A stretch of 20,000 nucleotides of DNA from the NCBI GenBank assembly GCA_003971905.1, contig RSEE01000169.1, forward strand, positions 47,848 to 67,847, in the 5' to 3' direction. Under the pieces are notes generated by a model. It was not told the origin of the DNA. It saw nothing but the letters and a program-made list of their open reading frames with translations, and made no database searches. Both the position numbers and the translations under genes were made by a program. Source of the DNA: Moniliella sp. 'wahieum'. Lineage: Eukaryota. This document shows, piece after piece, positions 1-18,283 of this stretch (position 1 is the stretch's first letter; every line of letters begins with the position of its first letter).

Positions 1-604
1 TAGACTGGCCTTGTTCCCTCCTGCTGCGGCTGGCCGCACGGAGGAGAGAGCGCCCCTCCGCCAGACCCATTATTTTGCAACCGTAAGGAATTCAGACACT
101 CACCCCATACTGTGGTTTTGACGGGCCAACGTACCTCCCTCCAACCCTACCCCTTACTCGGCAGACGCCGCGTGCCACTGCCGCGTGCCACTGGCCTCCC
201 TCGCTGTCCAGGCCTGCGACAAGACGGCGCGGTTGAGCTATCAGCAAGGGTGGTGAGGCCACCAAGCCCCAAGTAAAGTAGACAGTGTCAACGCTTCTTT
301 CTTTCTGAGTTCCGTGTCCTCGTTGAGTAGGCGAGTGGGGGAGGCGAAATCGACGGTCCCGGTGCCCCTTCCGGCCCTTCCATCCCAAGAGGTCGGGACT
401 CCGGACTGAGTACTGAGTAAGACGCAAAGGTTCGGCCGCTGAGGACTGAGGTTGCGGGAGGATCAAATGGCGAGTGCGCCCCTCCCCAACCCCCCCTGGG
501 TCAGCCGGTTCGACTGGCTTGTGACGTGCACACGTGTTGGGGGACAGGAGAGGCTGTTGAGCGGCTGAGCCCTGAGCTGAGGAGAGAAGACACTTGTTTC
601 GTTA

Positions 605-702
605 CCGTCACCGTCACCGTCACCGTGTCCGTATCCGTCCGCACGGCTTGTTCCAGCTGTTCCAGCTGTTCAAGCTGTTCAAGCTGTTCAAGCTGTTCAA
701 GC
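605..702. repeat. Hexamer (CCGTCA)n followed by 9-bp tandem repeat (TTC(C/A)AGCTG) x ~6
   Basis: Read directly: ccgtca x3-4 at 605-626; ttccagctg x2 + ttcaagctg x3 + ttcaagc at 651-702. Confidence 0.9.
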
Positions 703-1218
703 GTCGGTTCCCCCGCCTTCGCCCCCTCGTTCATTAGTCACTAGTCACTCCACCTACCTACCTTATCCGTATCCCGTAGGCAGGAACAACAATAGCTTCC
801 AAAGGGAGTCACAACAATGGCGCAGGGCAACCTGAAGCACTCTACAGAGCGCACGAGGTGCAGAGGAGAGGGAACAAGAGGGGGGGGAAACCAAAAAAAC
901 ACAAAGGCAAGAAGGAGCCGTCAAGCTTCAGCGTCAAGCCTTCAAGCCTTCCAAGCGTCAAGCTCGCGTCAAGCTCGAAGCTAGCTTCCAGGAAAGATAG
1001 AACAGGGTGGCAACTAAGGTACCGTCGTACCAGCCGTACCACCGTATCAGACGCCTAAGCTCATGGGAGTTTGCCAAGCAACAGCAACCCGAAGCCAGAA
1101 TCGGCGAAAGGATAGAAAAGGATATGGGGGGGCGGTGACGCAGTCAGATGGGCATGGAGCATGGAAGAAGAAAGGGGCGGCTAAGGGACGGAAACAAGAA
1201 AACAAGATGCCCGATGTG

Positions 1219-1272
1219 GCATGGACCATGGACCATGGATTATGGTTCATGGTTCATGGTTCATGGTACATG
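1219..1272. repeat. 7-bp tandem repeat (CCATGGA / TTCATGG), degenerate
   Basis: gcatggaccatggaccatggattatggttcatggttcatggttcatggtacatg, just downstream of the PWWP stop codon. Confidence 0.85.
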
Positions 1273-1388
1273 CATCGTTGGGGCCTGTCATCCGATCCTT
1301 TCATCGATCACAACATGGTGCCCAACCACATTCGAATCGGCGGGCGTCGCCTCGTCTGCGTCCGCATGGGGCCCTGCAGCTACTCTGC

Positions 1389-3029
1389 TCAGTTTCCCTC
1401 CAGGAGAGGTTCCCATTTGAGCAGCAACGTGGTCGCGCGTGGGTAAACTGGTACTGCGCCTCCAAGTCGGCCGGAAGCGTGGTTTTAATAATCAACTTGA
1501 GCACCTTGTGGATCTTACTGTGCCGGATGCCCTGGACCGTGACATTGGGCAACGACTCGAGAGTGGTAAGGTGCTGGTGTACACGGCGCATTGACTGGAA
1601 TAGCATACCCACGTTACCACGCAGTAAGTCAGTTAGTAAACAAGTACAGTAAGTTAACGCCCACGGACCAGAAGAGCCCAAGCATGCGCAACATAGCAAC
1701 AGAATAACGTACGTCTACCATATTCTCCTCGCGACCCAAAAACAGTTTCTGTAACTCAAAACGCAACCGCCTCAGGAAACGATCGGAGCTGACCGCCGAA
1801 CTTGATGTCGATGTCGTTGTCGTTGTCGTTGTAGTTGTCGTTGTCGTTGGCGCTGTCGTTGGCGCTGTCGTTGGCGCTGCCGTTGGCGTTGTTTTGTCGA
1901 CTGTCCTACTAGTCATGTCGGCTGTCATGTCAGTCGTGTCCGGCTCGGGTCCGGCACGCGGGTCCGGCACAGGCACCGGATCCAACCGTGGCGACTTGGT
2001 GCTGGGCAAGGAACCGTCAATCGCGCCCTCTGTCGCAGCGGCTTGTTGGACCACAGGAGGCTGCTTGGAAGGACGTCCACGCTTCCGCGGCGCAGGCTGG
2101 GACGAAGGCTCCAAACCCTGGTGGGTCACGGGCTGAAAGGGAACAAACCGAGCCACTTTCAGGAGGGCGGTCGCGCTTGCGCGGCACAGATGGAGACAAG
2201 GGGGGTGGGATGGGGGCCGTCTCTGGCTTTGGCTCTGCTGGCTCCGGCTGTGGCTTTGGCTCTGCGGGAGCGGCATCAGTAGCGACAGCAGTAGTAGCGA
2301 GCGGTTCCGGCCTGGGTGGCACAGGCACTGACGCGGACGAAGGCTTGGGTCCTGGGGCGGTCAAAGCTGTCTTGGCGGTCTTGGCGGTCTTGGGGCGTCC
2401 GGGAGGACGGGTACGTGCCTTGACGCGGCTGCTTAGCACCTGCTTGGCTTGCCTCACGCGTTCGTCGTGCTCCCGTGCCCACGCGATCGGGTCGGCCAGG
2501 ACAATCTCGTACGCTTGGAGCAAGCCGGTGGGGGGCAGGCGGGGAGCGTGTTTCTTTTGGCGAGGAATTCAGCCGCGTCGGCAGTAGTCAGGGGGGTGAG
2601 TTCAGATGTGTGGAAGAACGCGCTGCGGGGGGAGAGGAGAAGATGGTGAGTGACGCGTGGTGTGGAGAAAGGAGAATGGAGAGGGAAGGCAGGGGGACGT
2701 ACTAGTCGGCATCGGGGATGAAGCGGACAATGTTGGCCTTGGTGGCGTTGTGGCGACGTTGGCGAACGGCCATTACGTCGGATGGGACCTGGTCGGGTCG
2801 ACGACCTGCAGGGCGCCAGCCAAGAGAATCGGTTAGCTCGGCCAGGGTGGGCCACGCGAGGGAGGACATGTGCATACCATGGCGGGCCAGGGGCGGTATC
2901 CGCGCAGCTGCGCAAGCACGAGCGTGTCGCGTTCGCTGCGGAGCGTCGGCCAGGAGACGCGCAGAGGGTCAGCCAGTGTGCCGACGGAGAAGAGAAGAGG
3001 CAAACGTACAAGCGAGGCGATGCGTCCAT
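1389..3029 (-). CDS. PWWP-domain chromatin protein with AT-hook(s) and C-terminal LEDGF-IBD/TFIIS-N-like helical domain (fungal Pdp3/LEDGF-like); 5 exons, about 4 apparent frameshifts
   Basis: Manual splice model, all GT-AG: exons 3029-3010, 2935-2878, 2805-2703, 2622-1713, 1594-1389. Gives MDASPRFERDTLVLAQLRGYRPWPAMVVD(P)DQVPSDVMAVR...NIVRFIPDADYAFFHTSELTPL...LLQAYE (PWWP), then RPPGRPK and PRKRGRPSK (AT-hook-like), a poly-Thr tract, and RRLRFELQKLFL...LESLPNVTVQGIRHSKIHKVLKLI...QF.(P)RATTLLLKWEPLLEGN*. The frame must be corrected at ~2796, ~2556, somewhere in 2100-2276, and ~1442. Confidence 0.85.
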
Positions 3030-3616
3030 GGTGGGTCAACGCGCAGTAACAAGTCGAGACGTCAGCGGCCAGCACACCCAATCCCACCCCCGCCCCTACC
3101 ACTCAAGTCCTCTTTAATCCACGCTGTTCGCGGCGCGTCGGCTGCTTACGTACGCCGTTGCTGGCGTCCCTCGGAGGCTCCGCACTAATAAAGACGTCGA
3201 ATCCCGTCGTTGGCGTTGGACATGCTGAGCAATCAATCCCGCCCAGCACCACCAAGTCCCCGCGTCCACCCCATCGACCATCCTTCCCTCCTGCCATCTA
3301 TCTCCACCGCGCATAGTATGCTCGGCGTCTTGCCCTTCGTACCATGCAAGCTGGTCATGATGCCAACCTCAGCATACAATTTTAGGACAGGCGCCTCCCC
3401 GGCCGTAGGCCTGCCAGTCTCCAACAGAAGAGCGTAGGCACAGCAGGCAGGTGATCGAAGAGACCGCTGCCGCAACATACATCATCGGAGCAGCTGTTTC
3501 GCCCCACCAAGGTCCAGTCGGGCACAGCACAGTAGCAGCGCTGGGGACGAGACCGAGGACCGAAACACCGCATGATCGATGACGAGGGAAGGACCTGCTG
3601 GTCCCAACCAGGCCAC

Positions 3617-4013
3617 TTAGATGTTCAGCTTGGTCCGGCGCCAGTTGCGGCGGAACTTATTGTACTGGATCTTGTTGTCCGTCTTCATGCGGAACCACTG
3701 GGGGATCGGGCTGGCAAAAAGCGAAAAAAAATCGGTCACAGGTTAGTTAGGATTCCAAAGTCAACGGGGAAAAGACAATTGGAGTGCCGGCCGGCGCAGA
3801 GTCTGGCCTCGCACCTCGAACTCCCATCGCATCGCCCGACACGGCGTGCGGGACGGCAAGGCACAAGGAATGCAAGCACCAGGATGTCTGCGTCCAGGAG
3901 AAAGAGGAACGCGGGAATGAGAGGGAGGAAAGGAGGGATCGATCTACGTACCGGTTCTTCCGGCCGGCCTTAGCCAGGGTGGACTTGGTCCGGAACGTCT
4001 TGTGGGAAGGCAT
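3617..4013 (-). CDS. RPL39: 60S ribosomal protein L39 (eL39), 2 exons
   Basis: Exons 4013-3952 and 3710-3617, with intron 3951-3711 (GTACGT...CTAAC...CAG). Splices to 51 aa [51 protein letters not shown], an unmistakable eL39. Confidence 0.97.
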
Positions 4014-4673
4014 GGTCGCTGCACAGAAGGGGAATACGAGTCAGTAAACACAGCGTTCCAAGGAAGGCCCGTAGCCATGCACAAGGCCATGCACAGCAAC
4101 GCCACCGTCCGGGCAGCATCCACTCACCTGGTCTCGCAAAGTTCAGGGCTGGCAGAACCAAAGACGAGTTGCGTCGCCGCTAGCGTCGATGGGCTGGCGC
4201 AAGGCAGGGCGGTAGGGTTGGACTGGCCATAACCCTACTAGTGCGATTGCGGAGCTGCCGCAGCTTTTTTCAGCCCCCGTGGGGCTGGAAGCTGGAGGCT
4301 GGTGGATGCATGAGGTGCCTGGATATGAAATGTTGAAGGCGGGATGGTAGGTACCAGGTGGAAAAACCCCGCACGTGCCTGCTTGCAACGCGCTCGCTCG
4401 CCCCAGTCGGTTGCACCTAAGATCCAAGGACGGGCCATGGGCCATGCAACTCCGAGAGCCGTGCCACCGCCTCTACCCCACTCGACCGTAATGACGCCGT
4501 CGTCGATATGAGCCGGACGGACCAATTCCCTCCTTTGCTCTCTTGCGCATCGTTCTCACCAACCTCACATGCAGCCTGAGTCGGCGCCTACCTCATTACC
4601 ATCATCCTCGTATGTGCATGCGATCGTTCTGCCTTTCCAGTTGGCACAAGTGCGATCCTTGCTTACAAGGACC

Positions 4674-5839
4674 TTACTCGGTCGTGAACACAATCTTCCT
4701 CACCTTGCGTTGGGAGAAGAGGTCGTAGTACGTCGCTGCCTCGTCCAGCGGGGCCACCTTCTCCACAAACGTGGCGAATCGGTCCACATTTTTGGCGAGA
4801 AGCGAAAGAGCCGGCTGGGAAAAAAGGTAAGGATGGGAATGGTTAGCAAGCGTCCTGTGGCTCTTAGATCTTATGTTGTAAGTCTCCTACTTACCTTGAA
4901 CACGGAGCGGACGGGACAGCGGCCAAACTGAAGACGAATGTTCTTGTTGTACAGCGCTGGTCCGTTCAGGAGCACGTCTTGAGTAAAGATGCCGCAAGAG
5001 GCCACCGCGCCAAACGGACGAACCAGGTTGATGGCCGTGCGAAGGGCAGAAGGTGCACCCACCTTCCAACGCAGCATCCGCCCCGCGTCCCTCTGTCAAT
5101 TCCAACACCCGCGTCTGGACCGACGTAGCATCCATATCCGCAGGCAACTGCACCGTCTCGTCTGCGCCCATTGTACGTGCTTCCTTCAGTCGGTCAGGAC
5201 CGAATCAATCGCAATCACATGCCCAAAAAACGATTTGGCAGCTAACACTGCGCACAAGCCCACCGGTCCACACCCAACCACCACGGCCGTAGTGGGCTTG
5301 GAGCGCTCCACCTCGTTGAGCAAATTGTACGCATTGGATGCGACAAAGTAACCAGTCGGAACCACGTCGGCCATAAGTACCTGCAACGGCAATGGCACCA
5401 CCGACTCGTCCAGGGCATGGTACAGCGTCGTAGCAGCCAATTCAACGCGCACGTACTCGGCCTGTGCACCAGCTAAGAGCGGCGTACCAAAACATTTTCC
5501 ACCCTGCAGGCACCGCCCCGACTCGCCCCGCTCACAGTAAAAGCAAGTTCCACACGACGTAGTGAAGGGCGACAAGACTTGGTCACCAGGCTTGAACTGC
5601 GTCACCGCCGATCCCACTTCCACCACTGTGCCGGTAAATTCGTGGCCCATGATGATCCCGACCTCAGGCACTTTCTGACCACCGTGGTAGTAGTGCATGT
5701 CGGACGCACACAGCGCCGTACGGGAAACTTTGACGATGGCATCGGTGGGGGCTTGGATGGTGGGCGTAGGTACCTGCTCGACCGACACTTTGTAGGGTGC
5801 GTGCAGCACGACGGCTTTCATCTGGGTCGGGAGTGCCAT
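4674..5839 (-). CDS. Zinc-binding medium-chain alcohol dehydrogenase (GroES-like + Rossmann; formaldehyde-dehydrogenase-like subfamily), 2 exons, 2 apparent frameshifts
   Basis: ATG at 5839 (MALPTQMKAVV). Motifs LCASDMH, GHE, CGTCFYCERGESGRC (structural Zn), ADVVPTG and GCGPVG. Continues after indels at ~5197 (DSV(P)DRLKEAR) and ~5062 (LE(V)VGAPSAL). Intron 4894-4815 (GTAAGT...CTAAC...CAG). Ends KVRKIVFTTE* at 4674. Confidence 0.92.
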
Positions 5840-6275
5840 GGCGCAAACAGAGAGGCGAAGGAGAGAGGGAGGGAGAAAGGGAGGGCGGGAAACAGAAAGG
5901 CGGGGGGATGGTGGCTCCCTTTTTTGGTGGGGGTTGGGGTGGGAAGAGATGGGATGGCTGTGTAGGAGCGATGTGGGGCGACAGGCGACACGCATCATGC
6001 ATCACTTAGTCACTCTGGGGCAGTCGGGCACAGGGACACAGGCGGAGAGGGTCGGAGAGGGTCCGTGCGCACCCGGCTCCTGCCTGGACCGAGGGGAGCG
6101 CTTGGGCTGGATGGCTTGGGAAGCACAGTGCGTATCCAACCAATACCGGCTGTGATGGGGCGCGTGGGCCGGTGGTCACACGTCACACCCACCGCCCATC
6201 GATCCAATCCCCCCACACGCCTTGGCGACGGGAGCGCATCCCGATTAGGTAATGAATGTGACCAGCCGGGTTACA

Positions 6276-7080
6276 GGTCTTAGCGTGGACGAGCTCAGGA
6301 AAGGTGGAGGTGTGTGTGGTAGCTTGTTCATTCAGAGCATAGCAAAGCATCTCCTTTTTATACCCCAAAGAAAGAGGGTAAGCGAACGTATTGAAGATAA
6401 GGCAAGGCAGATTCGGGATTATGGAGGAGAAAAACGTGAGATAACGTGAGATAGGACGGAGGAGGAAGAACACAGCAGTACTATACACAAAAGAGCCTGA
6501 AATACTACAAGTTTTCTCGCACGTGGTAAAGTATTGTGTGATGACAGTGGAACAGACAAACAAAGGCAAAGAGGAGGATAATCGATAACCCAAACGAGTG
6601 ATGGATCCTTGTATGTACCTCTTCTTGAAGTTATTGATGGCTCCAGCAAAAACGGCATCCACATCCCAAAATGCGCGCGGATTATTATTGCACAATGCGA
6701 AATTGGCTCTGTTTTTTCCGAATGTCGAATGAGAAGACGAATCTCGTCAACTCAAAAGTCTATCTTGCCTCCAGCTACATGAGAGCGCAAAAATGGTGGA
6801 CCTCCAGGCTGTGCTCACGTTTGGAAGCACCCAAGGACGGGACGTTTGATCCATTTTGGGAAAACAACTGCACGGAAGAATTCTGCAAGAAATGGGCCAC
6901 GACGCCAAAAAAAGGTCCAAGCTGAGCTTCGTAAAACTAACTACACACGGAAGAAGGACTATGAAGGTTATCATCTCATCACTAAGCAATCTCCAAGTGG
7001 ACTCAAATGACAAACGTACACGAAACGTAAGCGGATGACGTTTGACGCCACAAGTCTCAAAAAATGGAAAGGCCATCTGT
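6276..7080 (+). mobile_element. Degenerate Ty3/Gypsy-type LTR retrotransposon gag remnant
   Basis: Frame-broken translation NSKVYLASSYMR-AQKWW...DPFWENN..EEFCKK...KKVQAELRK.NYT...DYEGY (~6750-6970) follows the retrotransposon gag capsid pattern (K..A.SY+.G.A..WW ... EF ... A..EL..L.Q). A-rich, multiple stops and frameshifts. An LTR-end-like GTTACA at 6270-6275 precedes it. Recognised by eye, not by search. Confidence 0.55.
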
Positions 7081-7124
7081 GTCGCCTTTGAAAGTTCCTT
7101 CCATGTGCGGAGGAGTGAGAGAGA

Positions 7125-7330
7125 GAAACGGAATTTCCTGTGGCCGTTTTTGCCCTACAAGTATATGGACATGACACTTCCTTGACGCGAAGTCGTCCTC
7201 ATAGTCCTCGCATGCTGCGCCTGTACCTTCATATAGTATTCTCTGTCGGTACAAGTGAATACCGCATATGTGTTTCTTCTTCGTTCTGCCCTTCACCGGC
7301 CTGACCTGCATTTCTTTTTTCCTCATTTCT
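7125..7330 (-). mobile_element. Possible degenerate gag nucleocapsid zinc-knuckle fragment, opposite orientation
   Basis: Minus strand reads VKEVSC(P)YTC then, after a frameshift, GKNGHRKFR (~7186-7125). This resembles a decayed C-X2-C-X4-H-X4-C knuckle preceded by basic residues; the last Cys is absent. Confidence 0.3.
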
Positions 7331-10181
7331 CACCCTGATTTGTGATTCTTTACATCGGTGGGAGGTGACTATGACTCGTCCACCTCGTGCCCTCGGCTTC
7401 CTCTCTGCCTACAACTTGGCCATCGCTGATGGAGACTGACTAAATGGAGTCCACAGATCGGTGGGAGTGTCAGATTCATATATGCCGTGCCAGGGGATCC
7501 TTGGCCTAACCCCTTCACCCGCGTGGGAATTATAGCGTGATTCACGTACTGTAACCACATCATTGACAAAGCTTATGGCTGAGAACAGCGGAGGCGAACT
7601 CGAACCGGCGAAAACATCGCACGTTAAACGGCCACCGGTCGCAACTCAATGCGTCTCAACTCAACGTACCTTAACGTACCCTTAACCCTCATCGACCTCT
7701 CTCATCGACTCAGCACTGGTACTCACAACGTTCAACGTGTTCAACGTCGTCCGCAGTAGGCCTCGTCCGGGCTTCCTCACTGTCACCTCCTGCACGAGAA
7801 CTCACGCAACGTAGGTTAAATCAATGAAGGGATCAGTTTGACTGTACGCGGGAAGGAGAAGGGGAAACTGGTTATAGTACATCATATACGAAGGTATCCA
7901 GGTGGTAGAAAACCTTGAAGAAGAACTTGAATAGCTGTGTATTGTAAAAAGGGTGGGGGGTCTGAGACCCGGGTCACTTGAACCTTGAACAGCTTGAACG
8001 TGAGCGTTTTGAGCGCTGAGCGGATCAATGTGTTACATGTTTTTGTGATGTGACATGTGATGCATGATGATCGAGATGATCAACACGTCGTTTCGGAAGC
8101 TTGAGACGCGTACAGTAGTGCGCGTATTAGCGCGTCAACGCGTCAACGTTCAACGTTCAACGTTGCTGGCTGTATATGAGTACACTCAGGAGTATGAATA
8201 TGGCGCCTGCGACATTGTGACTGTTACATGTGACGGTGGCAAAGTCATGAATCGAAGAACCGACGAACTTGTTGAACACGTTGAACGCACAAAAAAACTG
8301 CACGTCTGCTGTGCGGTGCCACCATTCCCAGCGTCGCTACGGAATAAAATCGACGTGAATTGTTTACTGAAGACGCTGACATGTTCGCGAGCTTCACATT
8401 AGGGAACCGAAACCCTGGTTTTACGGGTCCCGCAGGGCTCTATCTGTCCGGATTCGATACACCGACCCCCCTTCGGACCCCGCTGAGTACCGAGTAGTGA
8501 CGGTGGGATTGCGGCATCTCATCGATCACCAGCGGAGACCTTCCCTGCCCATCGGAGACAATTAGACTCACTGAGAACTGAACGATGAGTTCCACAGATC
8601 CAAAGTCAAGGAACACTGGCGTGAATTTAGGAGGGCCGTGAGTAGTCCATTCCTAGTGGTCGGGCAGAGCCATGCAGCGTCCGGGAAGGAGACTGCGCGT
8701 TATAGGTTCCGGACGTGAAAGCGTGGAGCTTCAACGGGCGAAGGAGGCCTGCGAGCGAGCTGATTGAAAGGGAGGAAGATTATTTAGGGCCTAGAAGAAG
8801 GAGTAGGGGAAAGGGAGCCAAGAAGCAATAATAGCAACGATTATAATGATACCGGAGCGAAGGTGTGGCTGGCAAGGCGACTTCGTCGTTGCCCTACAGC
8901 CGTTACCACCTCCTAACAAGCTGGATCGGCATCAATATTTTTTGTGCCGGGTACATATATGCTCTTGCTAAAGCTGCAATGTCCCCCCTATTCATCGCGC
9001 GCGCCCCTATGTTGAACACACACCAGGGACGTCAGATCTCAGAGATTTAGGTGAGGAAGTGGCAGTGGCAACGTACTTTTTTGGGATAGAGTGATGTTCT
9101 GTGGGCTTCTTCGGCTGGTGGTACAACGATATCATCTGAGGGTCTTGCGTTTTGTTTCTTGGAGCATTTTTTCTCGTCCGTAGTCGAGTAGTCCCAGTAG
9201 CAAACTATTTGGCCACCCATACCGAAAACTACAGCAGACTACTATAAACTACTGTCTATTAAAGCCCCCCTGCTCGTCACGTCCCATAATCTCAGTCACT
9301 GGCTCTGTCACATGCAGGGGCACCTTGTTCGAAGACGTGTCGCATCATTTTCCAGGTCACACACATGTCACATGTCATACGGCATACATTTGTTCTGGCG
9401 GGCTCGGGCCGTGTATTACAGAGTGCAGGTGATTTGCGTGGAGCTTGTGAACAGATGGACGCCGAACCTAGCTACCAAACAGGGTGCAACTTCCTCGTTC
9501 CCACGGTGTTCCCACGGTCAGTAACTGAATAATGCCAAGTGTAGTGCACTGCGCAGAACGTGTTTCCAACGCCCCGCAGTACCTCTTCTTCTTAGTGTGA
9601 AGAAAACGGGTGTGACGCGGCCAAAAAACTCTTCATGTGTAAAACAAGGAGAGAGCGATGAGGAAACCAAGTGAGCCTAATACTGTTATCGTCTGGTGTC
9701 CCATGTGCCTCTTCCCCCTTGGAAAATAACTATACCCGGCTATACTGCGTGTACTCTATCGCATCGATCAGCATATCAACATGCGACTACATCTATAGGA
9801 TTTTCCCGCTATTATACTACCAACCCCACATACCTTGTTCATACTGTGGACTCCGGCCATCGGCTGTCCCATGCCCCACGCTGTGTCGGCACGTCTGCAC
9901 ATCTCACCTCTCTTGGACTTCATAATAACCGTTTTCGGTTTGGGCAGGCGGGATTGGACGCTGGACGTTGGACGAAGGTGTTGGAAAAAGAACTGTGTGT
10001 TGGGCCGGCAAACATGCATCCTCACAAACACGCCACGTCACTCGCGGTACGTGATATGTGATACCAATTGTGCATGACAGTCTCGGACCTATGATGCTCA
10101 CACATGCCATAATGGTAGCCATAGTGGATGGCATGCCACCTGCCGATCCCCCCCCTCTGGCATCTTCTGGGATCCATCCAG

Positions 10182-10262
10182 TGTCACATGTCACTAGTCG
10201 CTAGTCGCTAATCACTACATGTTCATTTGCCACACTTCACTCGCCACTAGTCACTAGTCACT
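10182..10262. repeat. TNA-centred heptad array
   Basis: TGTCACA TGTCACT AGTCGCT AGTCGCT AATCACT (10182-10216) and AGTCACT x2 (10249-10262). Confidence 0.85.
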
Positions 10263-11039
10263 CGATGGGCGACGTGTCAAATGAACTTAGCTACAAGTAT
10301 AGTAACTACTAGTAACTGCTAATGAATCAAACCGGCACAGGTTAAACCTCGTCGTCTTCGAGCGCGAGACACATGTTATGCACTCTCTGCGGCCCCGACC
10401 AACGTCCAACACTCACATGCATCACAACGACAGCAAGCACAAAAGAACCACATCACAACTAATGTCACACGCATCACCTACTCCGACTTTTCAAAATCCG
10501 TACACACCGCTCACAACTCAGTATATACTCTGAGCGCTGAGCATGCGCGTACTCTCCCACTTCAAGCTTCACGCACCTTTTTTTGTAACGCTTGGAACGT
10601 TGAAAACGCACGTGTTGCAAGGACGCCGGCCGGCTATCCCCCCCCGCGTAAAGCGGGGTGACCGGTGAAAAGACACCTTCGTCGCTATATATACTTTGGC
10701 CGCTTTTATGCGTTACGGCTATTCACAGAAGGTAGTACCCAGTCCCGAGAGAAAGAGGTTTTGCAGGGAGGGAAAAGTCGGTGCACATTTAAGGGTGTCT
10801 ACACCAAACCTCGCTATTACATGCTGAGAACATGAAAGGGGTGTATAGATGTGTGCCCCTGGTGTATAAACTTCCTCGAGGCGCATTTTTGGAGTGTTCT
10901 TTTCTATCGTGTGTGCTTCTCGTCTTCTCGTGACATGTGACAACTCTTCTGCTTAATTGCTCAAGGCCATGGTGTCAACCAACCTCTCGTGGCCAAAGCG
11001 TCGCCTGCCTCCTCCTATTGTTCGAGAGAAGGGCCGACG

Positions 11040-11180
11040 TATACAATACAGTGCGTGTGAGGAGCCGTCGGTCATTGGTTATTACGGACACGTACAATAC
11101 GTTTTCAAGCACAAAATCTCAAAAGCAACAAAACGAGCTTCACACACTCTCGTTCTTGTACTTCTTCTTGCCAAGATGCA
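11040..11180 (+). mobile_element. Possible decayed CACTA/EnSpm-type transposase C-terminal fragment
   Basis: ORF 10957-11220 contains YYGHVQYVFKHKI...SHTLVLV, resembling the Y(F/Y)GxVQY(F)FxH...HxLAxV pattern of fungal CACTA transposase C-termini. No catalytic domain or TIR seen. Confidence 0.25.
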
Positions 11181-11600
11181 CACTGATGTGCTTATTGAAG
11201 GGCTTCTCGCCCCTCTGTAATCCCGTGTATTTTTTGGTGCCTGTGTGTGTCAGTACTCATTACTTAGTAAATAGAAGCGCCGGGCCTTTGACAGAAGTAC
11301 ATATGTGTTGATCATGTTGATCGGCGAGCGCTCTAGGCTGATTAATTACTAGTGAAAAAAGCTGTTGAAGATCGAGAGATGAATGCATTATACGTTAGGC
11401 CTTTGGTCTCTCGATCGTTGATCTTGCCGATCGTGAGCACCAACCTATTGACAAGGCCTCCATCTTGTTTATTTGTCCCGCACAGATCTGCTTGGATCTG
11501 TTACTTCTGTCAGGTAGAATGGATGTGTTTAACATCTGCCCTATATCCTGCATTCAATATTCGTATCCTTGGCGCCTTGGCACTGGCAATTACGGTATGC

Positions 11601-11787
11601 AGACACATCTCACATGTCACATGTCACATCTCAAGATCTCAAGCTTGAAGCTTGAAGCTTGACAGTCTCAGAGATCCCTAGCGTCGTTTAATGTTTAGTA
11701 CTTAGTTGTTACCAGAGTTGGGACTACTTACGCAGCGTTACGCGTTACGCCTCTCTCGACAACATGAATTACGTGTTACGTGTTACG
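11601..11787. repeat. TNA-centred heptad arrays
   Basis: TCTCACA TGTCACA TGTCACA TCTCAAG a TCTCAAG CTTGAAG CTTGAAG CTTGACA (11608-11664); GTTTAGT ACTTAGT (11693-11706); CGTTACG x2 (11736-11749); AATTACG TGTTACG TGTTACG (11767-11787). Confidence 0.85.
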
Positions 11788-12569
11788 ATCGTACCGGATG
11801 GGCGAGCTTCTGCGGTGTGCCGGACGTATATGCCTCGTGTGCCGAGCTCGAAACTGTTTCGCGTTTCGTCCCAGTCCCTGGCACTTAGATCTATAAGCTT
11901 TTGCAACTGAGATGGATTCGACAGGTACCGCCGGTCCGTCCCGGCCATCTGGCATGCAACACATGCACATCATTGATCACTCGATCACTGATCATCCATC
12001 CTGTTACAGTGCTCGTGACTAGTGCTAGTGATTGCCAGTGACTGTCACATGTCACTGGGGAAAGTCGGGACAATGCTAGTGCCGGTGCAAGTGCTAGTGC
12101 TAGTGATTAGTGATGGATCAACAAAAGATCAAAAACCTTTTCTTGTGTTTCTATTCCCGCAAAGCAACCCCAGGTTCCGATCAGCTGCTGAGCTCCGCCA
12201 GTCAAGCTACGTTTGGACGTTAGGTTGTGCGCAGTGGCGGTTCCTAGGTGCGAGGTATACTTACAGGAGGCTACATTCCAGTTGAGAAGGACGCAACGGT
12301 GATCATCTCACGGATCGATGATATGGTACTGCTTAGGCTAAGCGCTAAACCCCACCATGAGTGCCTGTCTCGAGCCGTTCAATCTTATATGCGACGAGTT
12401 TTACACTACTTTCCTTCGTGCTACTCCATCTCAATGTGCTGGCTCGCTGCTTCGAGGCGCGAAGAAATGGTTCCGATTGCACGGCTCGTTGGAGGAGAGA
12501 GCAACATTCCGACCTCTTGTGTGCTTGAGCTCATGAGTGTCATGGCGTGCCTACTTCAAGGTTATACAC

Positions 12570-12624
12570 GTTTAACGTTTAACGCTTAACGACCAACGCT
12601 CAACCTTCAACGTTCAACATTAAC
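12570..12624. repeat. TNA-centred heptad array
   Basis: GTTTAAC GTTTAAC GCTTAAC GACCAAC GCTCAAC CTTCAAC GTTCAAC in register. Confidence 0.85.
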
Positions 12625-12905
12625 TTCGGCCGGCGAATGTCGGCGACACAGACCAGTTGTGGCCACACACCTACACTCAATAGATGACCTGCCCAACACA
12701 ACAGCATGCCGCTGTCCAACCAAACACTTAGTTACTCAAAGAGGGGTATCCTAGGGTACCCTCCCGCCCTCTCTTCTCCTTCGCGACTGGGGTACCGTCG
12801 GTGATTGATGATTCTACAGAATCTTTGATCACCTCTTCTCTCAGATCTCACATCGCATCGGCTCATATCGCTCTCTCTCTCCGTTCCTAGCCACGTGCGG
12901 AGGCA

Positions 12906-12940
12906 CATGAGTATTGAGTACTGAGTACTGAGTACTCATC
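12906..12940. repeat. TNA-centred heptad array
   Basis: CATGAGT ATTGAGT ACTGAGT ACTGAGT ACTCATC, with an orientation flip creating the palindrome TGAGTACTCA. Confidence 0.85.
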
Positions 12941-13123
12941 GATCGATCATCAGCATACATGGGAGGGTACATGGCCTACCGTCACGCTCCCTTAACCATT
13001 ATCGAGTATCGCAGAGAGAGCTATCATTTAGCAACTTAACAAACTGTGGGCCTGAGAGGCCTGAGATCTGAGACCTAGGGACCGGCACCGACAACCTTGG
13101 AGCTTGGCCGGACCAAAGAGACG

Positions 13124-13229
13124 GCAGTAGAGTACAGTAGAGCAACAATAGAGCGCACCACTAAAGCACAGCACTACAGCATTAGGGACCTGCAGATCAC
13201 TTTGGAGCACTGTAGAGCACAGTGGAGCA
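13124..13229. repeat. Degenerate ~10-bp repeats (CAGTAGAGCA consensus)
   Basis: cagtagagta, cagtagagca, caatagagcg, cactaaagca, cactacagca, ctgtagagca, cagtggagca. Confidence 0.6.
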
Positions 13230-13688
13230 ACGTCGATCGAACAGATCAGCGGCATATTATGCTTTCTGATATGGTACGAGCATCACATGCACTGTATAGC
13301 GTGCGGTCGGGGTTCCTATCTCATCAATCGTACCACCTTTTCTCTTCGTTTTGCCCTTCGTGTACCCTATACGTCGCCGCGCGCCGGGGTGTGTGAAGGA
13401 CATGGGACGATGGTTGATTCACGAAGAACGCGTAACGAGGCAGTCGTGCTGCAATTAAGGGGACAGGAAGACCCACCTACCAACAGAACGACAACATGTA
13501 ATGTATTTGGAACAGAGGCACTCCCGCTCTCTGCCAGTGCTTTTCCTCCTCATATTGATTGATGCTTGTGTACCTCCCCCACCCCTCATATAAAACGGAG
13601 AGAGAGAGAGGCTTTCTATGGGATCCCCATCCCACTTGTCCCCCCTTCCACTCCTTTACACTCCAAGTGTCCCTCCCCAGGCCCCAAC

Positions 13689-15266
13689 ATGCACCTCCGC
13701 TCTTTTATTCCGTTCGTCGCATTCGCTTTCTCTTTGGCCCGTGCCGATCCCATCCGCGGTGTCAGTCTAGGGTACGTTTCCCAGTATCTGTTTATTTATT
13801 TCCCCTTCTTGTATACTGCAAAATGGGGTATACGGGAGGCTGTGTGCTCCTTCATCTGCTTCCCCGCGCACTATCCTACCCCGTATCTATTTCCGAGCGC
13901 ACAGATCGAGAGACTGACACTGTTGATGGATTCCCGTACTCTTTCGTACACAGCGGCTGGTTGCTGGCTGAAAAGTGGATGGTACCATCGCTCTTCCAAC
14001 AGACGGGTAACGATAGCGTAGTGGACGAGTGGACGTTTGGATCGGTCTCCAACGCCCAGGAGTTGCTCACCAAACATTGGGAGCATTTCATCACCGAATC
14101 GGATTTCCAAAAGATGAGCGATGCTGGACTCAACTTTGTTCGGTACGTTTCTCTCCCCTCGTTTCCCTTGCCAAAGAAGAGGCTCTAGGCCATGCCGACG
14201 GAGGATGCCCATGATGCCCAGGAGAGGTGGTTTCAAAGCCACGGAACACTCACTGACTTGCTGGAACATCAACCCGGCTACCCAACTACACAGGATCCCG
14301 ATAGGCTATTGGGCATACGACAAGGATGACGACGAACCCTATGTCAAGGCCAACCAGACCGCCTACCTGTCGCGTGCGGTTGGATGGGCCAACCAGCACG
14401 GAATCCAAGTCATGGTCGATCTGCACGGCGTGCCAGGCTCGCAGAATGGGCAAGCCACCTCGGGCCATAAGGGACCGATCGCATGGCAGAAGAGTGCCTC
14501 GAATGCCCAGCGCGCCCAAGCAGTTATTTCCCAAATCAGCAACGACCTCAAAGGCAAAGTAAGTCATATTGAACTGATCAACGAGCCTTTTCTCGACCGC
14601 CCCATTGCCAACTTGACCACCTACACCAAAAACTATTACGAGGCGGCGTACCCGACCACCCAGCCGAGCTTCACCGGGGTTCTGCACGACGGATTCCTTC
14701 CCCTGTCCAGCTGGGACGGCTTTTTGCCAGGAAGCATGCTGGATACCCATATCTACATTGGCCTGCAACCGTACCGTGGCATGGATCGTACGTCTCCTCC
14801 CCCCCTCCCCCTTTGTGCCGAAGCGAAAAGAGCGGCTGTTTTGCGCATGGTCAAGGGACTGTATAGCTGACCTCGGTTCACGTGCCCAGCCAATGCGACG
14901 GTCCCAGCGTACGACAACATTACCGACACGAACCTGCGGCAGATCTGCCAGCTCAAGGGCACGTTGGCCGCAAGCCAAGCGCACCACGCGACGCTGGTGG
15001 GGGAGTTTACGCTGACGCAGACCCCGTCTTCGGCGCAGCGGCGGGGGATGGTGGGGGTGCATAAGAAGCGGGCGACGCGGGACCAGGTGGCGTACCGCAA
15101 GGCGCTGTTTGACACGCAGCGGGCGGTGTACGAGGAGAATGGGGCGGGGTGGTCGATGTGGACGTGGAAGATGGACTATGCGAGTCCGTGGAGCTACGAG
15201 ACGGGGCTGCGCAACGGCTGGATCACACGCGACCTCGCGTCACGGTGCGCGGCGGCTGCGTGCTAA
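13689..15266 (+). CDS. Secreted glycoside hydrolase family 5 (GH5_9-like exo-1,3-beta-glucanase), 4 exons, intact
   Basis: Exons 13689-13771, 13954-14142, 14294-14787, 14890-15266 (all GTACGT...CAG introns). Signal peptide MHLRSFIPFVAFAFSLARA. Motifs IRGVSLGGWLLAEKW, DEWT, HWEHFITE.DF, VRIPIGYW, VDLHGVPGSQNG, ELINEP (acid/base), HDGF, DTHIY, VGEF (nucleophile) and GWSMWTWK. Confidence 0.95.
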
Positions 15267-15513
15267 GCCTTAGCGCTAAGGGTAGATTGGGATGGGATGG
15301 GATAGCAATGGGACACTGGCGATCCACATCGCAGGGATTACGTACAGACGCAGATAGCGAGATACTAGACGAAATGTTCAACTGCATTCCGCCGTGTCTG
15401 CTCCGCTGCGGCTGACCAGCGGTGGCCGCGACGAATGGGAAGAAATACGAGCACTCGCTCCCGCTCCTCTGCCCGACCTTCCCGCCCCGCCCCGCCGCCC
15501 CACACGGGCGCCC

Positions 15514-17533
15514 ATGGCCGCCCTCGCCACGCTCCGGCCCAGCCCGCGCGCGTCGCTCCTTGCGCGCCCCAGCCCATGCCCCTACACACCCTCCCTCCCC
15601 TCCCCCCGCGCCGCCTCCCCCCTTCCCTCCCCCCTCCGACCCGCTCCTGGCCAGCCTCCTGCGCAGCACCCCCCCGCCCCGCCCCGCCCGCGCCCCGCCC
15701 GCGCCCGCCCCCTTCCTTTCCCTGCACCTTTCCTCGCCCTCCCCCGCCCCCGCCCCCGCACGCCCCCGCCACGCCCCCCCCCGCCCACGCCGCCATCTGC
15801 TCTCGCTCCAGCGCCTGCGTCCACACTGACCGCCTCCTCCACCGCTGCTGCCGCGCCCTCTTGCAGCGCCGCCTCTCCCCCCAGGACGCCCTGCCCAGCT
15901 CTACCACGATCTCCTCCACGCCCTCCGCCCTGCGCCCGCCAGCGAGAGCGCATCGCCAACGAGGCCGCTGTTCTTCTTCTCGCCCGCCTCGTCAGCATCA
16001 GCATGCCCGACCAGGCCTGTCTGCCGAAAAAACGCCGCCCCGCCATCCGCACCCTCAATCGGCCCACGTCGCCCGTTCCCTCCTCCCTGCCAAATCCGCC
16101 CCGTTCCAAGCACCGCGCAACCGGCCCCACTTCCACTCCCCGCTCCAGTACTGGTACTTTATCATGGCTCAGTTTGCTCCCCCCCGCTGCTGTCGGAACG
16201 AAACGAAGTGACGGTGCTGCTGCCGCTCCCGCAGGCTTCGGTGGAGCGTGTGCAGGTTGCTTGCGAGTTTTACCAAGCCATCTGCCCCACGGTGGACAAG
16301 CGCGAGCACTGGACATTGCCAAGGTCCAGAACAAGACACTCTATTATCTCTTTGACCTGCTCTTTGCCCAACTCTCCCTGGCCCTCTCCGATCTCCGGGC
16401 CGGCGAGGTGCCCGACCCACATAAGCTCCTTGCTCCCCAAGGTGAATTGCACTTTGTCCTCCACCCCTCTCCTTCTCTTGGCCGATCCCATTCTTCGTCC
16501 AACCATGGCCCGCTTGGCCACACGACGCTTGATTGCCCTCTTGTCGGAACATACCCGTCTCCTCCTCCGGGTCGCCAACGACGCCCACCATGCCGCATCC
16601 ACCTCGTCCCCCAAGCGCCGGAGAAACCTTGCTCACATCCTTGACCAGGCTCACAACAGGGTACCCACCTTTTCCGACAAACCCTCCTGGATCATATTCC
16701 TTGCTTTGACGGCGCTCGCTACCGCGGCTTGAGCTTTGAACACGACACGGGGGCTCAGACATGGTACACGCTCTTGTCCACCTTATCTTTGGACGTGGCC
16801 ACTCACCCCCTCCTGCTCGCTATGGTCCAAAAGCTGAGACGACAATGGCAAGCTGCATACACCACCCCAGGGGTGTGGGACAGCTTTCGCCCCGACGTGG
16901 ACCGACGGCGAGTGGTGGTGTTGATGCAGTCGCTGTTGCTCCTTCGAACGATGGTCAACTCTGGACGAGCGACCGCATTTTCCCCTCCGACCTCAGATGC
17001 TCGTTGCGCCCAACGGAGAACAAGTGGAACTGTGCCCTGAGAGCCACCGTACCGCTCTCCATCTATTCCACCTTCTCCCCCGCGCTGCTCGTAGCCGACA
17101 GCTCGCCCATCTCCTCCTCTCGGTCTGGGGGAACATCCACTCAACCATCTCCGCCCGCTCCCTCCGGCACCGGGAACCCAAGATGCCTTGTCTCCGGCCC
17201 CACCTAGCCTCACGGGCATGGACTCAAATCTCAACATGGACATGGACATGGATATGGATACGGATACGGACGTGGGCATGGACTCGGGCCTTACCCGTGC
17301 TCACACTCGTCCTCATCCTCATGCTCGGCCATTCGACCCGGCTGCAGGACAGGAGGCGCTGCATGCAGCCATGTGCTACGTACCTTGCTTCCTACCCTGT
17401 CGGAGCAGATACGTTCCGCGCCCGCTTTGCCTCGCACCTGCTCCATGGCGCTGCGCACCGCATCGACGAGGACCTGGCTTACCTCCGTGCCCAAGGACAG
17501 CACGCACTCTTGCGTGCGCTCCTGGACAGATGA
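15514..17533 (+). CDS. Hypothetical, largely helical protein with possible N-terminal mitochondrial presequence; multiple frameshifts
   Basis: A chain of overlapping + strand ORF segments with protein-like Leu-rich sequence: RERIANEAAVLLLARLVS; ALDIAKVQNKTLYYLFDLLFAQL; LADPILRPTMARLATRRLIALLSEH; WYTLLSTLSLDVATHPLLLAMVQKL; RIDEDLAYLRAQGQHALLRALLDR* ending at 17533. ATG 15514 gives MAALATLRPSPRASLLARP (Arg/Ser/Ala-rich, no acidic residues). Start is uncertain. Confidence 0.5.
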
Positions 17534-17603
17534 GATGGACCAACATGCATCATGCCTGGCGTGTGGTGGGACGGGTGCTGTGCTCGTATTCGTACTGGTA
17601 TTC

Positions 17604-17763
17604 GTAGGGATGGAGGCAGGGATGGAGGCAGGGATGGAGGTAGGGATGGAGGTAGGGATGGAGGTAGGGATGGGTAGGGATGGAGGTAGGGATGGAGGTA
17701 GGGATGGAGGCAGGGCGTGCGGAGTGCGAGTGAGAGTGCGAGTGCGAGTGCAAGTGCGAGTGC
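17604..17763. repeat. 12-bp minisatellite (AGGGATGGAGG(C/T)) x ~9 followed by (GAGTGC)n
   Basis: Read directly, downstream of the stop codon at 17533. Confidence 0.92.
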
Positions 17764-18283
17764 CGGCTGCTGCGATCCATGAGAGCATGCCGGTCGGGGC
17801 GACAATCGAGGCGGCATGAGGTGTTGACACGGTGGATGGGGTGTGAGATCGCATGTGACGGGCAGCTGCACGTGAGTGGGTTGTGAGCCCTACCATTCCG
17901 ATTCCTCGATCCTCAATCACGCGAATCACGATCATTAATTTCTTAGTCATTCGTCGCTCAGAAGCAATCCTCACGCCCTGCGTTGAGCCATTATGCATTG
18001 GTTCCCAAGTGTACAAGTGTATCACGCCGACAGAGCTCTCAGAGGACCTGTAGTACTTAGTACTTAGCATGTCACACCAGTCGCCTGAGCGGTGCTGGAC
18101 GCGGCCTGGATGCTGCTACTGACTCACCTCATGCCCTGCCTCTTCCCACCACCCGCACCTTCCCCGCCCACCATTACCACCGCCACCGCCCACCGCCACC
18201 GCCACCGCCACACCAACACCCACACCCACACCCGATGCAGACCGCCGCCGGCTGCCCGCCCGCACGCCCGCGCCAGGCGGTCG

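Follow-up and report, generated by a model that had tools for sequence, protein, structure and literature searches.

TNA-centred heptad repeats in a fungal genome as probable excision scars of a terminal-inverted-repeat transposon family

Flank hairpins that are opened by the host have been documented for hAT, Transib, RAG and Muta1 in the cited part of PMC5499845, and Artemis is described as opening hairpins at the tip or 2-4 nt off the tip (PMC13041557, in its cited part). Reporter assays usually reveal excision footprints in small numbers. Here we describe a 20,000-nt stretch (C169:47848-67847, called the window below) of a 69.5-Mb assembly of 223 contigs, in which a sequence-only reading had noticed tandem 7-bp units built around TNA and proposed that they were hairpin-type footprints of a TNA-targeting cut-and-paste element. 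Our results indicate that these heptads are most likely excision scars of a terminal inverted repeat (TIR) family with CTCACTGA ends, made via flush flank hairpins and end joining. Both the indels between haplotypes and a TIR family with TNA-centred duplications supported the earlier proposal, which was partly upheld: it was right in kind, with the target revised to 7 bp and one particular family now named as the probable source. No entry listed from an open-licence library described such a genome-wide pattern, although termini of this kind may be recorded elsewhere.

Palindromic TNA joints and their target

The strict motif was defined as T-N-A, a 4-bp palindrome and the same T-N-A, and its null as 60 local dinucleotide shuffles of the window. 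There were 38 occurrences at 32 loci against 0.9 +/- 0.8 expected, a clear enrichment as the earlier proposal required. The recurring loci are real, and all 13 examples quoted for them were found in place; the count of about 20 was too low. Other spacings were at chance (2-bp spacer, 1 vs 2.9; 6-bp spacer, 0 vs 0.3), and so were other cores (ANT, 1 vs 0.9; CNG, 1 vs 1.8; GNC, 5 vs 2.1). The spacer had been described as a flanking dinucleotide plus its reverse complement, and this was true of 33 of the 38 hits (the left flank alone in 13, the right alone in 11 and both in 9). Across the motif, the N of TNA was the same in 317 cases, complementary in 29 and other in 38. The density on contig C13 was 317 motifs per 290 kb; elsewhere, 116 loci fetched for other reasons gave 429 motifs in 399 kb, with at least one motif in 96 of them (about 1 per kb). 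If this sampled density holds across the multi-haplotype assembly, it would amount to about 75,000 motif hits.

A site is written below as ab-TNA-cd, with a left-arm product ab-TNA-b'a'-ab-TNA and a right-arm product TNA-cd-d'c'-TNA-cd. The region of the window occurs three times in the assembly, on C169, on the near-identical C69:1-9534 and as a divergent haplotype on C13, and the assembly therefore contains several haplotypes. The joints of the window and their C13 alleles are as follows.

405-418: +7 scar with both arms, (ACTGAGT)2; identical in C13
649-702: period-9 array, 7-mer GTTCAAG plus palindromic CT; C13 shorter by three units
736-749: +7 scar (AGTCACT)2
956-973: period-11 joint CGTCAAG + CT + CG + CGTCAAG, the full 7-mer plus two palindromic bases per flank; longer array in C13
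6577-6590: left-arm +7 scar GA-TAA-TC-GA-TAA; C13 without the 7 bases
7550-7556: unhit site TGTAACC; C13 has the +9 scar TGTAACC-GG-TGTAACC
7730-7747: period-9 joint GTTCAAC + GT + GTTCAAC
8131-8164: compound array, a period-8 joint (CGTCAAC + G) and then +7 units GTTCAAC
9030-9043: right-arm +7 scar CG-TCA-GA-TC-TCA-GA; C13 without the 7 bases
9366-9379: left-arm +7 scar TG-TCA-CA-TG-TCA
10301-10317: period-10 joint AGTAACT + A + CT + AGTAACT, called by sequence inspection
10529-10542: right-arm +7 scar; C13 without the scar and 7 bases shorter
10560-10573: left-arm +7 scar CT-TCA-AG-CT-TCA; C13 without the 7 bases
10929-10942: right-arm +7 scar TGA-CA-TG-TGA-CA
11604-11662: compound array whose core changes along it, from TGTCACA units through the period-8 joint TCTCAAG + A + TCTCAAG (11629-11643) to CTTGAAG units
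11693-11706: right-arm +7 scar TTA-GT-AC-TTA-GT; C13 without the 7 bases
11736-11749: (CGTTACG)2; C13 longer by one unit
12043-12056: left-arm +7 scar TG-TCA-CA-TG-TCA
12568-12618: period-7 lattice of GTTTAAC and drifted units; C13 shorter by one unit
12839-12852: left-arm +7 scar TC-TCA-GA-TC-TCA
12908-12936: (ACTGAGT)n array; C13 shorter by 21 bases
13051-13073: period-9 joint CCTGAGA + GG + CCTGAGA, then a right-arm +7 unit at the same site
17915-17930: +9 scar AATCACG + CG + AATCACG; C13 has a single AATCACG
18051-18068: ACTTAGT array; C13 longer by one unit

Comparison of the C169-type and the divergent haplotype covered 269,119 aligned columns with 8,996 substitutions (about 3.3% divergence). 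Only clean indels were kept, those bordered on either side by 14 columns free of gaps and with no more than 4 mismatches. Among 107 clean 7-bp indels, 52 fitted the joint model (15 right-arm, 14 left-arm, 17 ambiguous ones in palindromic arrays and 6 plain), so that alleles do differ by exact 7-bp steps. Inverted bases were required by 29 of the 7-bp indels, compared with 1, 1 and 3 for control cores. Furthermore, 5 of 23 8-bp indels (control cores 1, 2 and 0) and 7 of 20 9-bp indels (0, 0 and 0) fitted, all of them requiring inverted bases, which brings the 7-9-bp indels of this kind to 41. At one upstream C169 site, units of the left-arm and the right-arm kind are both present when C13 is taken as the reference. 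An assembly artefact of long reads is almost certainly not the cause. The near-identical contigs C169 and C69, with 24 substitutions in 9,447 columns, do differ by many 1-2-bp indels, and a look-up of sequencing runs listed none, but 7-base indels made up 0 of 128 between them, which disfavours an artefact; moreover, many scars are common to the divergent haplotype, with point differences, and none lies in exons.

What is duplicated at these sites was read from 190 kb of C13, where 74 left-arm and 60 right-arm products (each below 0.5 in shuffles, TCA and TGA alike) stood beside 65 with both arms and 21 plain duplications. At non-palindromic 7-mers of the same DNA, 10 of 13 period-8 hits had the whole 7-mer twice with palindromic bases between; it was kept twice in 7 of 18 period-9 hits, the remaining 11 coming from 5 loci, and in 1 of 6 period-11 hits. 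Single 10- and 11-bp joints also retain the entire 7-mer. The target duplication is the symmetric 7-mer nnTNAnn and not 5 bp, because both arms are used about equally (also 14 vs 15 between haplotypes), 8- and 9-bp joints keep the whole 7-mer and the element duplications are 7 bp. The sequence-only reading had taken each unit as a 5-bp duplication plus 2 P-like nucleotides; this "5 + 2" is the commonest repair outcome rather than the duplication itself. An asymmetric 5-bp duplication was rejected on the equal use of the arms, and a 3-bp one (TNA only) because TNA-TNA was unenriched (107 vs 112.6). A two-fold symmetric enzyme would be expected to choose a TNA-centred symmetric 7-mer, not a 5-bp target with a terminal TNA. 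The joints were flush, and Ac-type joints were unenriched after the flush ones were set aside: the double transversion gave 0, and the one-sided classes (20 and 8) shrank to 2 and 2 when their flush members were taken out, compared with 11 and 11 for the two remaining bases.

Ordinary slippage contributes too, since only 11 of the 22 perfect period-7 runs in the window and 99 of 200 in 290 kb of C13 obey the TNA rule, and runs of period 5, 6, 8 and 9 were likewise above shuffles. Such runs and periods, together with palindromic arrays that differ by whole units between haplotypes, could also point to a replication or repair signature in which no transposon takes part and TNA sites undergo template switching or snap-back synthesis and later slippage. 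We regard this as very improbable. It leaves unexplained the fixed TNA centre, the zero-loop inversion and the retention of N (317 same vs 29 complementary), as well as a TIR family that shares the 7-bp TNA-centred duplication. Two further kinds of array were seen in the window. Period-7 arrays on CCATGG with no TNA core (CATGGAC, CATGGTT, GGGCCAT; 1220-1272 and 4432-4446) are probably slippage or drifted scars. Tandem arrays of 12 bp (GTAGGGATGGAG) and 6 bp (GTGCGA) at 17604-17763 are outside the TNA rule.

The absence of heptads from exons, already noticed from the letters, was confirmed: none of the 32 scar loci fell in 3,112 hand-called exon bases containing 85 of the 814 TNA sites (P ~0.03). 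That the scars are non-coding and are biased to TGA/TCA, in 53 of the 64 fitting indels that are 7 bp or longer, would agree with selected protein-binding sites in promoters, with bZIP- or homeodomain-like TGA/TCA half sites at fixed spacing. That explanation is extremely improbable, as 15 of the 16 possible palindromic spacers are used, each predicted by its own flank, and the haplotypes differ in their scars by exact steps of gain or loss. Three spliced genes in the window indicate that the host is a fungus.

3617-4014, minus strand: ribosomal protein L39 gene, spliced (PF00832, E 2.9e-14; exons hand-called); exons scar-free
4654-5839, minus strand: zinc alcohol dehydrogenase gene, spliced; one intron scar (4864), exons scar-free
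13689-15266, plus strand: GH5 glucanase gene, spliced (PF00150); exons scar-free

The window also has a long low-complexity open reading frame at 1760-2520 on the minus strand, with an AT-hook-like RKRGRP and TTTT tracts, for which there was no Pfam match.

A TIR family with TNA-centred duplications

The sequence-only reading had suggested looking for TIR elements with TNA-containing duplications. Such elements were found, in five copies and with 7-bp duplications. A loose pattern (TNANN-CTCACTG) gave 412 hits against 238 in the control and a family end at only 1 of 30 loci read. A tighter one gave 40 against 8, and the 19 hits read comprised 13 family ends and 6 others. All 13 ends start CTCACTGA, with the consensus CTCACTGA[G/T]CCG.... 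Five copies have both ends.

C20:546811-547188: miniature copy, 378 bp, duplication GATGATG
C23:154552-159519: 4,968 bp (4,982 with duplications), duplication GATCATG
C29:72158-77127: 4,970 bp (4,984 with duplications), duplication GTTGATG
C34:500340-505284: 4,945 bp (4,959 with duplications), duplication GTTGATG
C35:43991-48846: 4,856 bp (4,870 with duplications), duplication CATCAAC

All five lie in different flanks and are bordered by identical 7-bp TNA-centred direct repeats; the pattern allowed 32 heptamers, so that equality of the flanks was not imposed (1 in 32 for each copy). The inverted repeats are imperfect and about 60-97 bp long (54/60 to 83/97 columns matching), followed at both ends by 10-bp tandem subterminal repeats, and the miniature is self-folding (z -8.1). 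By their ends, the four copies of about 5 kb and the miniature are one family. Three single ends were found on C4, C38 and C23. A paralogue of the repeat invaded by the miniature holds a single GATGATG. In a blind sample of 896,625 bases there was one family end, and it was TNA-centred (background 0.039); for the 8 pattern-matching loci, random targeting has P ~1e-4 even at an upper bound of about 430 ends, a conservative figure. Furthermore, re-targeting predicts element ends that adjoin scars, and two were seen: one next to an exact +7 scar (GA-TGA-TC-GA-TGA-AG), the other next to a +9 scar carrying a single mismatch.

The following route would connect the family to the scars. On insertion the element duplicates its target, a symmetric 7-mer ab-TNA-cd, as the both-ended copies display. 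Judging from the joint structure and the chemistry of RAG, Transib, hAT and MULE, excision would then seal each flank as a hairpin flush at the element border, and the host would open the hairpins 2-3 nt off the tip, leaving overhangs cd-d'c'(T) and (A)b'a'-ab. The joints themselves suggest that end joining mostly retains one overhang and drops the other, probably because the inverted copy pairs at the T...A of the TNA on the opposite flank. Alternatively, overhangs aligned by their terminal A:T pairs would give the same two +7 products, ab-TNA-cd-d'c'-TNA-cd or ab-TNA-b'a'-ab-TNA-cd, with N unchanged. Rarer joints would keep more (+8 or +9 from partial overlap, +11 when both overhangs are kept) or less (+6). 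Each scar recreates TNA sites, may be hit again and may also grow by slippage, and both re-insertion and slippage probably act in the growth of arrays. Frame-shifting scars would be purged from exons, and precise excisions would leave nothing visible.

Several observations weigh against this reading. The TNA centre was imposed by the search pattern for 12 of the 13 family ends. The family is small, with an estimated tens of ends against roughly one scar per kb, and inspection of large indels in some 270 kb of haplotype alignment found none that belonged to this family and no locus where one haplotype has the element and the other a scar. It is defined here by its ends, and any transposase of its 5-kb copies is putative. 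Behind the single end on C4, no frame reached a Pfam family over the cut-off, and Atlas scores were 0.77; two hits to heavy-metal-binding proteins there were CxxC-driven and judged spurious. None of the 49 clean 10-13-bp indels fitted the model, and 17 of the 52 fitting 7-bp indels sit in palindromic arrays and may be slippage. The polarity of the indels, presumably insertion, was taken from the rule-following long allele. In the cited parts of the sources, known outcomes also differ: in Candida, 128 Ds excisions yielded 28 footprint types, a wider variety (PMC5873905), and Muta1 excision is about 90% precise (PMC5225508).

The roughly thousandfold excess of scars over elements and the unseen element-versus-scar allele pair would also agree with element-free cutting, in which most scars never held an element. 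A transposase of the same type, perhaps a domesticated one, would then cut at TNA 7-mers and leave no insertion that lasts, its abortive strand transfer, for example, being resolved via hairpins. So would a Tnp2-type gene that has no inverted repeats within 20 kb and occupies the same place on two haplotypes. We consider this unlikely. A full 7-bp copy on both sides plus a flush palindrome requires both flanks to be filled before hairpinning, which a completed insertion gives directly, and intact insertions with exactly such a 7-bp duplication exist. Moreover, about 41 events per 8,996 substitutions, or about 1 clear event per 220, would require no unusual rate, and a modest rate of hopping would suffice.

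Excision of the CTCACTGA-ended family, as we read it, has left thousands of natural footprints whose highly stereotyped form makes them legible in the sequence itself. They count past transposition that is hidden by element copies, show in natural material how a basidiomycete-like fungus opens hairpins and joins ends, and give a concrete origin for a class of microsatellites not begun by slippage. A wider proposal is plausible, although we incline slightly against it: that an undescribed cut-and-paste lineage (CTCACTGA ends, a 7-bp TNA-centred target, flush hairpins) of a few dozen copies has left about one scar per kb, seeded half of the heptamer repeats and re-targeted its own scars, so that intergenic DNA was largely written by an insert-excise ratchet.

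Transposase searches and other repeats

In the search of the genome itself, the hAT domain PF05699 gave 0 matches and 2 candidates, a weak test in which the control was silent, and the MULE domain PF10551 gave 0 matches, with a control that rang in 3 of 14 genomes. An exon-by-exon search for the KDZ and DDE_Tnp_4 domains (PF18758, PF13359) gave 0 matches each, the KDZ control being silent. A homologue search among longer proteins returned nothing. PF02992 (Tnp2) matched on C17, with an allelic copy on C62, and weakly on C34, in all cases outside the 5-kb copies of the family, and no inverted repeats were found within 20 kb of any of these matches. The gene on C17 (L130:587-3234; allelic at C62:282-283 kb) is transposase-like with broken frames and is a candidate for an old fixed copy or a domesticated gene.

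De novo scans of the fetched DNA for TIRs with duplications revealed no element with a TNA-centred 7-mer, and the other repeats considered as a source of the scars were rejected. One is a CACGG...CCGTG TIR element of 4.7 kb on C13 (L001:2969-7686), missing from the C169 allele, which resembles Cryptococcus CNEST by its ends and has 22 end matches in the genome (L108-L129); six tested frames were without a Pfam match. Its one both-ended copy has a 2-bp duplication, and among its 22 loci (3 with damaged or truncated ends) TNA-centred left 7-mers numbered 0 of 19. A second is the repeat family ending ...TAGAGAT or starting ACGAGG, whose duplication is variable (2-8 bp) or lacking; its apparent link to TGACATGTGAC arrays was query bias. 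Among other repeats are an abundant family (653 candidates; L058-L107) with a fixed end ...CATAGAGAT and a variable other end, to which the 90-bp C13 insert at window 10907 (L006:5010-5105) belongs, and a related 1-kb family that starts ACGAGGAAG, ends TAGAGAT and has variable 2-8-bp duplications. Both are Helitron- or non-LTR-like. Long terminal repeat (LTR) and solo-LTR insertions were set aside for their 5-bp duplications and lack of the TNA rule. Two 5-kb LTR retroelement copies on C13 (589008-594064 and 805637-810680; 99.3% identical, 160-bp LTRs) are each missing from the other haplotype, and several solo LTRs have 5-bp duplications.

Comparison with known systems

Hairpin-type excision footprints in general combine a direct copy of the target with flank-complementary bases, and this combination was found in 33 of the 38 window hits and in 41 indels; an element with the matching target duplication is also in the genome (5 of 5 both-ended copies). 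Hairpins made by RAG end flush at the border, and Transib duplicates 5 bp where the family here duplicates 7. The scars resemble Transib excision and RAG coding joints in host-opened flank hairpins a few bases off the tip and in P-nucleotides (PMC5499845 and PMC13041557, in their cited parts). The likeness to Ac/Ds (hAT; plants, budding yeast and Candida albicans) lies in a target duplication with deletions, palindromic P-nucleotides and microhomology joining (PMC5873905, as far as cited). However, Ac palindromes centre on the complement of the element-adjacent base, whereas the scars here are flush (cd|d'c'); the Ac/Ds duplication is 8 bp and ours 7 bp, with one dominant length genome-wide in natural DNA. 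The hAT chemistry invoked earlier was therefore unsupported, given the lack of a PF05699 match in a weak test and the unenriched Ac-type joints. Some hAT entries are annotated with 7-bp duplications (PMC4455052, cited in part), and hAT7 elements of rust fungi, basidiomycete elements with 7-bp duplications (PMC12730594, cited in part), share this length, but joints here are not Ac-type.

Muta1, a MULE, shares flank hairpins and subterminal repeats (PMC5225508, PMC5499845), and the cited part of PMC5225508 gives it an 8-9-bp duplication and no target preference, while the family here has 7 bp, outside the 8-10 bp of MULEs, and TNA. Galileo of the P superfamily reportedly has a 7-bp duplication (PMC4168063) like that of the family here; to our knowledge, P-type excision makes no flank hairpin. 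Tandem subterminal repeats are a trait of CACTA elements. They are found here together with CACTG within the ends, a likeness to the CMCT clade (EnSpm/CACTA, Plavaka, ESTA, CNIRT6, CNEST; PMC12730594 and PMC12810828, in part), and Tnp2 genes as well as the CNEST-like CACGG family are present in the same genome. That CACGG family, rejected above, agrees with CNEST, whose ends are CACGG and whose duplications are 2 bp (PMC12810828, in part). In contrast, the termini of the scar-linked family begin CT, none of the 13 ends read having the 5'-CA..TG-3' of CMCT termini, and its duplication is 7 bp in all five both-ended copies against 2-5 bp in that clade (PMC12730594, in part). The scars thus behave like P-nucleotide footprints and are filed under neither hAT, because the joint type differs, nor CMCT, because of the CT ends and the 7-bp duplication. 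A 7-bp duplication beyond the clade's range of 2-5 bp, combined with CACTA-like ends, may mark a new transposon lineage.

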